5,439 nucleotides of DNA, from NCBI RefSeq assembly GCF_003334785.1, contig NZ_QOWV01000044.1. One strand, written 5' to 3'. Both the position numbers and the translations under genes were made by a program. Shown in pieces: positions 1 through 5,439 of this stretch (position 1 is its first letter; every line of letters starts with the position of its first letter). The notes beneath the pieces are model-generated. The model was not told where the DNA came from and searched no databases. It was given only the letters and a program-made list of their open reading frames with translations. This DNA comes from Escherichia coli. GTDB lineage: Bacteria; Pseudomonadota; Gammaproteobacteria; Enterobacterales; Enterobacteriaceae.

Positions 1-60
1 GAATGGCCCTCCAACCGTGTTGACGAACTCCTGCCATGGAACGTAGTACTCACCAATAAA

Positions 61-92
61 TAAGCGTCAATACGGTGTTCCGTTGACGCTTA
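61..92 (-). terminator. Stem-loop, possible intrinsic terminator for leftward (minus-strand) transcription
   Basis: Seen in sequence: a perfect 10-bp inverted repeat, TAAGCGTCAA (61-70) and TTGACGCTTA (83-92), around a 12-nt loop that can itself form a 3-bp inner stem (CGG 73-75 with CCG 80-82). On the minus-strand transcript the stem is followed by UUUAUUGG (complement of 53-60). On the plus strand the following bases are not U-rich. It lies about 140 nt downstream of the 234-425 minus-strand gene. Confidence 0.35.
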
Positions 93-233
93 CTATAAAC
101 GTTTCCTGGGATGCGCTGAACACGGCATACAGTGAACACCCGGAGTGGTTTTCTGGGCTTGTCTCCGGGGATGAGAATTAATAAATGGATTATGCTGCCA
201 TCAGGCAGTGTGATTGCCGGCAGGGATTTCGTT

Positions 234-425
234 TTATTCTGTTTCTTCCCGGGGTTCGGGTTTGAATTTTCCCAGAAAGTTGTACATCGGTCGCATGCAG
301 GGATGCGGATAGCCGTCCCGCATAAACACCACCCGGGTTTCCTCAACACTGGTCACGGTGACAAGCGCACCATGATCGTCTTTGTATCGCTGATTGACTT
401 TCGGTAATGGAACATCTTCTGACAT
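234..425 (-). CDS. Small hypothetical protein, 63 aa; possibly DUF4222-like
   Basis: ORF with an ATG start at 425 and a TAA stop; an in-frame stop lies 8 codons upstream, so ATG is the only plausible start. No clear Shine-Dalgarno sequence. The translation (MSEDVPLPKVNQRYKDDHGALVTVTSVEETRVVFMRDGYPHPCMRPMYNFLGK...) is compositionally protein-like, with a YKDDHGALVTVT...RDGYPHPC pattern that I recall from small DUF4222-type proteins of enterobacterial islands and prophages. The family assignment is from memory only. The overlapping ORFs 50-349(-) and 132-407(+) are less protein-like. Confidence 0.5.
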   Translation of the reverse strand: MSEDVPLPKVNQRYKDDHGALVTVTSVEETRVVFMRDGYPHPCMRPMYNFLGKFKPEPREETE

Positions 426-1055
426 AAATTTTAGTACGGTAACAGTTAACTAAATTTTCATGTGGTAGCACTGAATCAGGAGACTGCGTTTCCTGATGTG
501 CGCTGTTAATTTTCTGTTTTTACGAAACATTTTCCCCTTCTTCCTGTGTATTTTATTGCGCTCCTCCTTTCATGTCCTTCCCATATCCTGAAACTCACTT
601 AAATGCTGTTGAATCGTCACGCATTGCAATTTTCAATGACTGAAATCAAAAATTGCTACTTTTTAGGCTAACCAACTGTATTAAAAGCATTCAGTGGAAT
701 AATTTTCTGCACTTTTCCATTAATTATGGTTATAAATTTTGCAATGTGCTGTTTTTGCGATATGTGACAGAATAAAGAACTGTTCATTTGTGCTATATCG
801 ATCGATAAATCTGTCATATTGCTGTAGTTCAGATCATTATTCTATAATGATCAAAAATAAGTCAGCTAAAAATTGGCAGATTTATTGCTCAGCATTCTGG
901 TACCGGTTGATGCGGGTAAATACCGGAAGGGCGGTAGCGTGCCATCGCAAAACATGGTGGGAGGTATCGTCAGGAGGCTGGTGATTGTTGGTATGACATG
1001 AATAAAAGGTTTTTCGTTTGACTGGAAAATTATGTTGCAGGAACGAGAGGGCTGA
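426..1055. promoter_or_regulatory. AT-rich non-coding region, likely promoter and silencing region
   Basis: Hand count of 661-780 gives about 30% G+C, against about 50% in a sampled stretch of the helicase gene (2281-2340). The only ORFs here (739-984 plus, 866-1102 minus) are Cys/Ser/Trp-rich and lack ribosome-binding sites. AT-rich tracts of this kind in horizontally acquired DNA are typical H-NS targets (established knowledge); binding is not shown by the sequence. Confidence 0.4.
819..848 (+). promoter_or_regulatory. Candidate sigma70-type promoter (-35 TTGCTG, 18-bp spacer, -10 TATAAT)
   Basis: Seen in sequence: TTGCTG at 819-824 and a perfect TATAAT at 843-848, oriented rightward toward the tpsB remnant and helicase gene. 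AT-rich DNA contains many chance promoter-like hexamers, so this is weak. Confidence 0.15.
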
Positions 1056-1517
1056 GGAACAAAGCTTATTCCGGCGCTGTCCGTCCTTGCTGTCACTGAC
1101 ACTGATGTCTGTTTTATTATCGCCTTTATCTCTTCAGGCCGCGGATATCAGCGCCAGCTGAGCAATACCCCGCTGACCCCACAGGAACAGTTTGCCATCG
1201 GTAACCGCTGGACGGTTCGTGGTTTTGACGGGGAGCGAACGCTGAATGCCAGTAACGGCTGGTATATCCGCAACGACCTGGCCTGGCGTACGCCACTGCC
1301 GGAGCAGGAGTTATATCTGGGAATGGATTACGGCGAGGTGGGGGGAGCCGGCAGTGAATACCTGGTGGGACGTCATCTGGCCGGTGGTGTTGTGGGGCTG
1401 AGGGGGCAACTGTTCAGTACGGATTATGACGTTTTCATCGGTCGTCCGTTTTCAAAACCGGCGGGTTTTATGACGAGTGATGTGACAGCCGGTTTTAATC
1501 TGTTCCGGGATTTCTGA
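1056..1517 (+). pseudogene. 3' remnant of an Omp85-superfamily two-partner-secretion transporter (TpsB; ShlB/FhaC/CdiB-like hemolysin-activator family)
   Basis: The reading frame is open from the stop at 1053-1055 to TGA at 1515-1517, but the first ATG is at 1323, with no credible start or signal peptide. The translation ...[59 protein letters not shown]...[25 protein letters not shown] contains the conserved (V/I)RG(F/Y) loop-L6 motif of Omp85/TpsB barrels (VRGF at 1215-1226) about 100 residues before a C-terminal aromatic residue (terminal F). Only about 150 codons are present; full-length TpsB proteins are about 550 aa. Confidence 0.6.
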
Positions 1518-1526
1518 GAAAATTTC

Positions 1527-3305
<1,779 letters not shown>

Positions 3306-3730
3306 TACCGGACCATTTTTTTATTCCGGACTTTCACCATACTGTTATTATCAGGTTTATTTAATTCACCATGAACCCATAATTTCACGATATTCAGATG
3401 CGTCTTTTTTATCTGAACCACTCTCCGCACTCCTGGCACTGGAATGTCAGATTCAGACCCCAGGAAGCCGTATATACTGGCAATGATACCTGTCATATAA
3501 TCATTACCTGTAATCAGTCAGGTTTTCATTTAACCAGGGACGGACAACGGCTGTTCACTGAGCGTTATATCAGAAACCTTAATGAGCTGTTACCTGTTCT
3601 GAAACGGCGGTGGGATGTGACGCCGGCAATTATCCGCGCGGTGGAATACCTTTCCCGGGTCCCGGTATCACACTGATGTTCTTTCCGTAACTGTTAATCA
3701 TGATTTAATACAGCAACACCGAATCTGCCG

Positions 3731-4804
3731 ATGACTTCTGAAGTGAAACTGAAAACCGGTGGTGACCCCCGGTCATTACCGGATTATGCTGCCCTGCGCG
3801 ATGAAATCAGCAAACTGACCCACCCGGCACGCCCGGATGTGGACTGGCGTTACGTGGAAACGCTCTGCCTGCGTCTGTATGAACACAATGGCGTGGAATT
3901 ACAGACGGCATCCTGGTACACCATCGCCCGGATGCATACAACAGGGTTAAGTGGCCTGAATGAAGGGCTGGCTCTGATTGTGGCGCTGACCCGGCATCAC
4001 TGGTCAGTGATGTGGCCGCTGAATACACACGCCCGGCTGGAAATTATTACCGGTCTGTTCAACCGTCTGCAAAAAACGCTCCGGGCCATGCCACCGGATG
4101 ACCGTGACAACCTGCCCCTGCTGTATCAGACCGAAACATTCCTGAAGGAACTGAGTGACACACTGGCCCGGTACGAACTTAAACAGAGCAGTAAAGTGGC
4201 TTTACCGGAAGCCATGGTGAAGGGATATATCACCCGTCTGGAAAATCAGCCGGTGCAGGGCGAAGCGTCGTCTCCGGTAACCCTTCCGGCTCAGGCACTC
4301 CGGTCTGATGCTCGGGACGTACAGGAACATCAGCCCCTGCCGCACTCCCGTCTGGTGTATGTTGTTTCTGAAACAAAAGCAGGGCCCACACCCTCCCTTC
4401 AAAAATCCCCTCCCACGTTTCTGAAACCGTTTGTGACTGGTGTCTGTGCGGCATTGCTGGCGGTCAGCGTGGCCATTCCGGGATGGCAGTATCTGACACA
4501 GCCATCACCGGCGGAGCAGCAACTCAGGGCGCTGCTGACACCACCACCGGATGTGCTTTCAGCAGACCAGATGACACAGCTCAGCAGAACACCCTCACTG
4601 TTAAATCATGCGTCAGAGTGGATAACCCTTTCCGGTCAGCAGATAACGCGACTGACAGAATTACCCCCGGCATATAACCTGCAGCGCAGTGCGCAGTTGC
4701 TGCAGCAACTGATGGTACTTTTCCCCGACAATCGTAAGCGTAAACTGACCGCCGTATGTAGCCATCAGACGAGAATTGGTAACTTAGACGCCCATCTGAT
4801 ATAG
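3731..4804 (+). CDS. Type VI secretion-associated ImpA_N-domain membrane protein (VasL/TssA-like); 3' end apparently replaced by IS66-family terminal sequence
   Basis: ORF of 357 aa. The N-terminal roughly 130 aa (GGDPRSLPDYAALRDEISKLTHPARPDVDWRYVETLCLRLYEHNGVELQTASWYTIARMHTTGLSGLNEGLALIVALTRHHWSVMWP) fit the ImpA N-terminal domain pattern of TssA/VasL proteins, as recalled. A single predicted transmembrane segment FLKPFVTGVCAALLAVSVAIPGW lies at about 4418-4486, consistent with VasL-like topology. The last 23 codons (from about 4733) are encoded by sequence starting with GTAAGCG, which I interpret as the IS66-family terminal inverted repeat, so the native C-terminus is probably lost. No strong Shine-Dalgarno sequence precedes the ATG. 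Confidence 0.55.
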   Translation: MTSEVKLKTGGDPRSLPDYAALRDEISKLTHPARPDVDWRYVETLCLRLYEHNGVELQTASWYTIARMHTTGLSGLNEGLALIVALTRHHWSVMWPLNTHARLEIITGLFNRLQKTLRAMPPDDRDNLPLLYQTETFLKELSDTLARYELKQSSKVALPEAMVKGYITRLENQPVQGEASSPVTLPAQALRSDARDVQEHQPLPHSRLVYVVSETKAGPTPSLQKSPPTFLKPFVTGVCAALLAVSVAIPGWQYLTQPSPAEQQLRALLTPPPDVLSADQMTQLSRTPSLLNHASEWITLSGQQITRLTELPPAYNLQRSAQLLQQLMVLFPDNRKRKLTAVCSHQTRIGNLDAHLI

Positions 4805-4818
4805 ACGGACATCTAAGT

Positions 4819-5244
4819 ATGGAATTACAGGACTGGCGAAAAGAACCTCGTAAAAACTATTCGAATGAATTCAAACTTCGTATGGTGGAACTGGCATCAC
4901 AACCTGGAGCTTGTGTTGCACAGATTGCACGTGAAAATGGCGTCAATGATAATGTTATTTTCAAATGGCTCAGGCTCTGGCAGAACGAAGGGCGTGTTTC
5001 GCGGCGTCTTCCGGTAACGACCTCTTCTGACACTGGCGTTGAATTATTACCTGTAGAAATAACGCCGGATGAGCAGAAAGAACCTGTGGCGGCCATTGCG
5101 CCGTCTTTATCCACTTCCACTCAGACCAGAGTCAGTGCCAGTTCCTGCAAGGTGGAATTCCGTCACGGTAACATGACGCTGGAAAATCCATCGCCAGAGC
5201 TGCTCACAGTGTTGATCCGTGAACTGACCGGGAGGGGAAGATGA
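4819..5244 (+). CDS. tnpA: IS66-family accessory protein OrfA (TnpA), 141 aa
   Basis: Translation MELQDWRKEPRKNYSNEFKLRMVELASQPGACVAQIARENGVNDNVIFKWLRLWQNEGR... matches my recollection of IS66/ISEc8-type orf1 proteins, which carry a helix-turn-helix-like N-terminal region. The stop overlaps the orfB start. Confidence 0.85.
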   Translation: MELQDWRKEPRKNYSNEFKLRMVELASQPGACVAQIARENGVNDNVIFKWLRLWQNEGRVSRRLPVTTSSDTGVELLPVEITPDEQKEPVAAIAPSLSTSTQTRVSASSCKVEFRHGNMTLENPSPELLTVLIRELTGRGR

Positions 5245-5439
5245 TCTCACTCCCATCAGGTACCCGTATCTGGCTCGTTGCCGGCGTTACCGATATGCGT
5301 AAATCCTTCAACGGACTGGGAGAACAGGTACAACATGTGCTGAATGATAATCCCTTCTCCGGTCACCCGGAGCAACACCTCCGCCCCTTCCGGGGTATCC
5401 TGCAGGCGGATGCGTTCACAGGTTACGACAGGTTGTTCA
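5241..5439 (+). CDS. tnpB: IS66-family OrfB (TnpB) N-terminus, partial at window edge; apparently fused in-frame to a transposase (TnpC)-like segment
   Basis: Translation MISLPSGTRIWLVAGVTDMRKSFNGLGEQVQHVLNDNPFSGH matches the IS66 orfB N-terminus as I recall it. The following residues PEQHLRPFRGILQADAFTGYDRLF do not match the expected continuation (LF.FRGRRGD...), and instead resemble the G.LQ.DGY.GY motif region of IS66 DDE transposases. The ORF is open to the window end. Confidence 0.6.
   Translation, partial: MISLPSGTRIWLVAGVTDMRKSFNGLGEQVQHVLNDNPFSGHPEQHLRPFRGILQADAFTGYDRLF

Follow-up and report, generated by a model that had tools for sequence, protein, structure and literature searches.

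The hairpin at the right end of an ISEc47-like IS66-family insertion sequence in Escherichia coli is most likely a lineage-specific by-product rather than a terminator

The IS66 family of insertion sequences (ISs), whose literature is said to include Han et al. (2001) and Gourbeyre et al. (2010), has terminal inverted repeats (IRs) with tips that reportedly start with GTAA, a rule attributed to ISfinder and to Gourbeyre 2010. In Paracoccus, experimentally captured members of the family carry direct repeats of 8 bp and imperfect IRs measuring 22/20 and 35/26 bp (PMC3281130, Table 2). Hairpins at IS ends are familiar from IS200/IS605, where HUH/Y1 transposases act on single-stranded DNA (ssDNA) and hairpins are present at both ends, with no IRs and no target site duplications (TSDs). 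Here, we analyzed a hairpin at the left edge of a 5,439-nucleotide (nt) stretch of E. coli DNA (the whole of which is termed the window herein). Bases 1 to 93 are the right end of an IS66-family IS, annotated as ISEc47-like; as such, it is a typical representative of a known family rather than a new element.

The plus strand at the left edge reads ...CTCACCAATAAA, the stop codon TAA, GCGTCAATACGGTGTTCCGTTGACGCTTAC, and then TATAAACG.... The original prediction was that frame 1, open from the start of the window to this TAA (translation EWPSNRVDELLPWNVVLTNK*), may be the 3' end of a plus-strand gene located largely beyond the left edge, and this proved to be the case: the gene is an IS66-family tnpC, according to the annotation of E. 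coli TW10722 and to matches with NCBIfam and Pfam models. Positions 1 to 600 are 100% identical to the TW10722 chromosome (locus L001), and positions 1 to 63 are identical to the end of L001 5008 to 6063, annotated as "IS66-like element ISEc47 family transposase"; positions 1 to 60 encode the final 20 residues of TnpC. The 351 TnpC residues available score 371 bits against NF033517 (IS66 family transposase; cutoff, 180 bits), and Pfam identifies DDE_Tnp_IS66 (PF03050; 1e-96) and DDE_Tnp_IS66_C (PF13817; 4.5e-16). Upstream of tnpC in TW10722, a transposase/TnpA (L001 4143 to 4577) and an IS66 TnpB (L001 4574 to 4924) are annotated, both outside the window. Leftward extension in TW10722 revealed, in addition to the open reading frame (ORF) ending at position 63, a matching left IR (IRL) and a TSD.

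The right end of the element (...ACGGTGTTCCGTTGACGCTTAC) lies at L001 6093, corresponding to window position 93 (...GCTTAC), and its left end (GTAAGCGTAAAGCCAATGCCGT...) lies at L001 4058; at the right end, C93 is the terminal base, reading 5'-GTAAGCGTCAA... on the other strand. The right IR (IRR) corresponds to the element's own IRL (GTAAGCGTAAAGCCAATGCCGTCTGTAAC, L001 4058), the two being imperfect repeats of each other (IRL GTAAGCGTAAAGCC... from L001 4058 and IRR GTAAGCGTCAACGG..., as the reverse complement from window position 93 down). The tip GTAAGCGT and an inner CCGTAT... block are common to the IRR, to its own IRL, and to the IRL of a second IS that starts at position 4734, with the inverted repeat between 70 to 96 and 4731 to 4757 spanning 27 nt at 81% complementarity. 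The empty target site (...cttttaTATAAACGtttcc... and, in another excerpt, ...cttttaTATAAACGtttcctggg...) is uninterrupted in E. coli strain 300709. There it lies inside an intact gene for a protein of 77 amino acids (WP_000124185; L002 2858 to 3091), and the ORF at 95 to 181 of the window is therefore the 3' remnant of that gene. Exact 8-bp TSDs were also found at independent insertions of two related elements (TTATTTAC at L004 and GAACGAGA at L013). Coordinates of the features are given in Table 1.

Table 1. Features at the left edge of the window
Feature	Position	Strand	Description
tnpC 3' end, last 20 codons + TAA	1-63	+	IS66-family DDE transposase; this copy is a pseudogene
Hairpin	61-92		arms 61-70 / 83-92, inner stem 73-75 with 80-82, loop 76-79, bulge 71-72
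Right terminal inverted repeat (IRR)	64-93		inward from tip: GTAAGCGTCAACGGAACACCGTATTGACGC
IRR inner box	65-75		CGTCAATACGG
IRR tip box	86-93		ACGCTTAC
Right TSD copy	94-101		TATAAACG, 8 bp; identical left copy next to the IRL at L001 4050-4057
3' remnant of IS-interrupted small hypothetical gene	95-181	+	pseudogene fragment, L001 6095-6181

The IS copy in TW10722 is 2,036 bp long, compared to about 2.5 kb for intact copies. Its tnpC is annotated as lacking the N terminus, and relative to the elements at L003, L004, and L007, it has an internal deletion of 488 bp that lies outside the window; because this part of tnpC is missing, the copy is defective and unable to transpose alone. The first ∼410 nt of the copy gave no blastn match to the intact elements at L003, L004, and L007, and its left end may, on this comparison, be a mosaic. 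Just upstream of the tnpA start in the same IS, a strong 9-bp hairpin (TAGAACTCC...GGAGTTCTA) was observed at L001 4109 to 4139, and the left end (L001 4058 to 4145) folds at −25.7 kcal/mol (z, −4.7).

The hairpin in the window does not extend beyond the right end of the IS. The 10 perfect pairs of its stem join positions 61 to 70 (TAAGCGTCAA) to their exact reverse complement at 83 to 92 (TTGACGCTTA), enclosing a 2-nt bulge and an inner stem of 3 to 4 bp (CGG with CCG) closed by a TGTT loop. As originally predicted, the stem begins at this stop codon. The codon, that of tnpC, forms the first three pairs, and the hairpin folds better than shuffled sequences. The 5' arm is made up of the stop codon and the start of the inner IR box, and the 3' arm is the IR tip; with 4 GC pairs, the 10-bp stem is moderately GC-poor. 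The RNA fold reaches −17.7 kcal/mol on the plus strand (z, −3.4; none of 200 shuffles as good) and −19.8 kcal/mol on the minus strand (z, −2.7), the stem energy ranging from −16 to −20 kcal/mol, and as ssDNA the hairpin folds at −12.7 kcal/mol (z about −6) on both strands. It is the sole perfect stem of ≥10 bp with a loop of 3 to 15 nt in the whole window. Markov-shuffled windows contained a mean of 0.07 such stems, and 5% of them contained at least one, so that the stem exceeds window-level chance. An Rfam scan of positions 1 to 1000 at an E value of ≤1 gave no match at the hairpin.

To place this fold within the family, we compared right ends. In complete E. coli genomes, the 93-nt right end was located at 12,372 places, spread over 4,515 of 5,426 genomes, where the annotated features are ISEc47, ISEc23, IS682, and ISEc43; strain E2348/69 is among those with an identical end. 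We fetched 80 loci encoding TnpC relatives (47 to 98% identity), together with ten right ends taken from records of E. coli and Klebsiella. The tip ACGCTTAC and the box CGTCAATACGG were invariant or nearly so in a set of 17 distinct enterobacterial right ends, and both could still be recognized in relatives down to about 50% TnpC identity. The perfect stem occurred only in ends annotated as ISEc47, ISEc23, or IS682, in a common chromosomal remnant, and at L003, L004, L005, L007, and L052; ISEc47, ISEc23, and IS682 elements keep it although their last 93 nt differ elsewhere. Right ends with about 90 to 93% nucleotide identity have one to three stem mismatches, and ISKox1-like and other enterobacterial ends have at least four, folding at only −3 to −8 kcal/mol. 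Compensatory changes were absent from the 17 distinct right ends (0 of 13 pairs changed on both sides); alignment pairs 16-41, 20-37, 25-34, and 26-33 were broken in 10 to 15 of the 17 sequences, and the paired fraction was 75.1%, compared to a column-shuffle expectation of 75.0%. A family-wide fold survey of 33 distinct right ends found no shared tip-pairing hairpin: the whole tip was paired in a stable stem only in the ISEc47/ISEc23/IS682 lineage and its one-mismatch neighbor L063 (7 of 8 tip bases), and a few others paired 5 or 6 of 8 tip bases in weak, nonsignificant folds. No comparable hairpin was found in the IRLs (z, +0.9 for positions 4734 to 4790). The conserved objects are two sequence boxes, a pattern that would be expected if the transposase recognizes duplex DNA, and the fold is lineage specific and not a conserved structure.

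Other kinds of hairpin and other hosts were also seen among the relatives. IS66-family relatives in MAGs of Acidobacteria and Solirubrobacterales (L056 at about 4060 to 4150, L022, L024, L027, and L037) have long near-perfect hairpins between the tnpC stop and the IRR, for example, ...CGTGTCCACAA...TTGTGGACACG..., which are separate from the IR tip. Given these stop-to-IRR hairpins in distant relatives, there may be a recurrent use for a hairpin close to the tnpC 3' end. ISEc47-like transposase sequences, 90 to 97% identical, were present on contigs L004, L005, L006, L052, L063, and L077, binned as Clostridia, Lachnospiraceae, Collinsella, Bacillota, and Segatella MAGs; such contigs are most likely mis-binned Enterobacteriaceae or the result of very recent transfer.

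Compared to ISKox1-like ends, ISEc47-like ends differ by several substitutions on both arms that all raise complementarity, in a comparison that is unpolarized. Because all of these substitutions increase pairing, we suggest that the self-complementarity arose as a by-product of IRR sequence drift or possibly by quasi-palindrome correction. A template-switch event, or else selection for folding, could explain this pattern on both arms, and the intermediate mismatch numbers at L087 to L089 would argue for stepwise change. The tip of the IR in this lineage (...TTGACGCTTAC) would simply happen to be complementary to the stop codon and inner box (TAAGCGTCAA...), giving the hairpin. The sequence itself would act as double-stranded DNA, with TnpC binding both IRs at their tip and inner boxes and cleaving at the ...TTAC end; since conservation in the two IRs falls on the tip and inner box, these are the putative transposase binding sites. 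The reading that we regard as probable is, thus, that positions 1 to 93 are the right end of a nonautonomous IS66-family IS whose foldability is most likely a by-product specific to its lineage, without a function of its own and with no role as a terminator for the flanking genes, and not a conserved RNA or DNA structure. Weighing against the by-product part of this reading are the excess of the stem over window-level chance, its perfect retention in elements that go by several IS names, the substitutions that all raise pairing, and the stop-to-IRR hairpins of distant relatives.

The original prediction had proposed a terminator, for the rightward gene, for the leftward gene at 234 to 425, or for both. 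A consensus promoter and terminator scan found no site at 1 to 110 on either strand. As predicted, the only U-run is on the minus-strand side (TTTATT, from AATAAA at 55 to 60). By d'Aubenton-Carafa-type scores, which are rough here (an rrnB T1 control was negative owing to the hairpin-boundary setting), the plus-strand tail (CUAUAAACG, or CUAUAAACGUUUCC) has a T-score of about 0.9 and d of about −51, and the minus-strand tail (UUUAUUGGUGAG) has a T-score of 3.3 and d of about −9, compared to +30 for a trp attenuator control in the same rough reimplementation. The plus-strand tail is flanking target DNA: because the IS boundary lies at position 93, the sequence following the stem on this strand is different at every insertion.

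Native termination of the leftward gene, which encodes a DUF4222 protein, is not supported either. The region of this gene, from base 90 on, was found without the IS in at least 12 E. coli genomes among the matches listed, one of which was read directly, and 1,361 genomes cover ≥80% of the 600-nt query, presumably mostly from base 90 on. The insertion is strain specific, and so the DUF4222 gene does not have this hairpin as its native terminator. Between the IS end and this gene lie 87 nt of the interrupted gene (95 to 181), and a spacer of 50 nt (184 to 233) separates the stop of the convergent hypothetical gene (179 to 181) from the stop of the DUF4222 gene (234 to 236). The spacer holds its own hairpin at about 192 to 222 (CUGCC...GGCAG region), followed by a U-rich run on the plus strand, which is a better candidate for the terminator originally sought.

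The minus-strand tail does leave room for another reading, which we consider unlikely, namely, that the hairpin and its UUUAUU tail form an inward-facing intrinsic terminator, borne by the IS, against transcription from the right flank that runs antisense to tnpC (at this site, read-through from the DUF4222 gene). UUUAUU directly follows the minus-strand stem of −16 to −20 kcal/mol, and this tail lies inside the IS, where it is carried by every copy as the reverse complement of the conserved AAT AAA codons. However, it is short and continues with GGUGAG, its d of about −9 falls far from that of the trp attenuator in our rough reimplementation, and the consensus scan made no call. Moreover, sister elements retain the AATAAA tail and lose the stem without compensation, and such a terminator is therefore not a conserved requirement. 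Weak incidental leftward termination at this tail is possible.

A related but somewhat bolder proposal would be that the right IR of the ISEc47/ISEc23/IS682 lineage was selected to fold on itself, with a hairpin that sequesters the tip as a regulatory device. If so, it might block antisense transcription as an insulator or terminator facing inward, or act as an ssDNA or RNA switch for right-end use or tnpC expression, and a folding right IR could have aided the success of ISEc47, ISEc23, and IS682, the commonest IS66 lineage in E. coli. We think this improbable and leave it a small share of our confidence because the lineage is so abundant. A full-text literature search did not find a description of the IRR hairpin.

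Still less likely is a role at the RNA level, in which the hairpin would protect the 3' end of the tnpC mRNA from exonucleases, or sequester the stop codon and so couple translation termination to IRR occupancy, an arrangement that would favor a cis-acting transposase. The stop codon does form the first three stem pairs, different hairpins directly follow the stop in some distant relatives, and the Mahillon and Chandler review of 1998 reportedly describes a transposase stop codon within or beside the IRR as a common IS layout. Against this role, the whole hairpin is present only in transcripts that reach at least the IS tip, covariation is absent, and close relatives lack the stem.

Very doubtful, too, is a hairpin or cruciform in a single-stranded end (for example, on the lagging-strand template) that masks or exposes the IR tip and thereby modulates use of this end: the ssDNA fold is strong on both strands, the stem includes the cleavage-proximal tip, and IS66a transposases reportedly bind the beta clamp and show an orientation bias (PMC3971601), but the hairpin exists at one end only, being absent from the IRL, is not conserved in the family, and belongs to an element with a transposase of the DDE type, which acts on duplex ends. 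Finally, a terminator of tnpC itself, or a bidirectional one shared by convergent genes, is just as doubtful, since its stable stem at a stop codon between convergent ORFs comes with no plus-strand U-tract and a tail of variable target DNA, and since the site is IS-free in other strains, so that the arrangement is not an evolved intergenic terminator, and the natural spacer has the hairpin and plus-strand U-rich run described above.

Two promoter candidates at the same place were tried and rejected. TTGACG at 83 to 88 was considered as the −35 element of a circle-junction promoter; the best −10-like hexamer of the IRL, TAAACT, would need a 5-bp linker versus the 8-bp TSD, and this idea was dropped because a mobilome study reported no circle junctions for the IS66 member ISEc22. 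An outward hybrid promoter reading from TTGACG into the flank has no −10 element at a suitable distance, as TATAAA starts only 5 nt downstream.

Several features of the wider window were noted alongside. Positions 4734 to 5439 are the left end of the second IS66-family element (ISEc23 family by annotation in the matching genome), with IRL GTAAGCGTAAACTGACCGCCGTATGTAGCC from 4734 and tnpA at 4819 to 5244 (NF047595/NF038385 matches); this IS truncates a TssA/ImpA-like ORF (3731 to 4804), the last 23 codons of which are read from the IS. The two IS66-family elements have the same orientation, bracketing the 4.6-kb segment from 94 to 4733 like a composite transposon. Compared with TW10722, 2,114 bp (L001 7575 to 9687) are absent from the window, with a 9-bp overlap at the junction (window position about 1566 to 1574). 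The deletion removes most of a toxin-activating lysine-acyltransferase gene and a frameshifted GIY-YIG nuclease gene, and it joins the acyltransferase start codon in frame to a gene annotated as "3'-5' exonuclease" (UvrD/PcrA-like helicase matches), giving a fused ORF of 592 amino acids (1527 to 3305). On the plus strand, positions 890 to 941 have a subthreshold Rfam match to the JUMPstart RNA (RF01707; 21.3 bits versus a gathering threshold of 35; E value, 0.06), upstream of a ShlB/FhaC-family fragment and the acyltransferase start, a placement that plausibly fits a candidate ops/RfaH element.

For annotation, the left edge of the window should be read as a mobile-element boundary and not as a gene-regulatory terminator, and the ORF fragment at 95 to 181 should be read as a gene broken by insertion. 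The bracketing of 94 to 4733 by IS66 elements bears on the rearrangement of an E. coli island, and the self-complementarity of the IRR in this lineage could help in the design of TnpC binding and transposition assays.

How the locus compares with known systems can now be stated. The cluster of substitutions that perfects an imperfect inverted repeat, as seen between ISKox1-like and ISEc47-like IRRs, resembles the quasi-palindrome correction or template-switch mutation described by Ripley and, for E. coli, by the Lovett laboratory. Intermediates exist at L087 to L089, however, and quasi-palindrome correction is offered as a possible origin only. In having a hairpin at the very IS end, the element recalls the terminator hairpin at the left end of IS200 and the subterminal hairpins of IS200/IS605 that are bound by the Y1 transposase, but here the enzyme is of the DDE type, the IRs are classical, the TSD is 8 bp long, and the hairpin is present at one end only. 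Like intrinsic (Rho-independent) terminators, the hairpin has a stable stem with a 4-nt loop located at a stop codon, and one strand carries a short U-rich run. It differs from them in that the strand of the gene ending there lacks a U-tract and the other strand has only a weak and interrupted one, in its moderately GC-poor stem, and in pairing that is not conserved in sister elements. The IS66 family itself (ISEc47, ISEc23, IS682, ISEc43, and ISEc8-type elements) matches in layout and sequence. Intact copies differ from the element described here, which carries the 488-bp tnpC deletion and has a first ∼410 nt unmatched in the copies compared, but they share with it the tnpA-tnpB-tnpC layout and DDE_Tnp_IS66 transposase, the imperfect IRs starting with GTAAGCG, the 8-bp target duplication, and a right end whose 93 nt are 95 to 100% identical to thousands of annotated copies.
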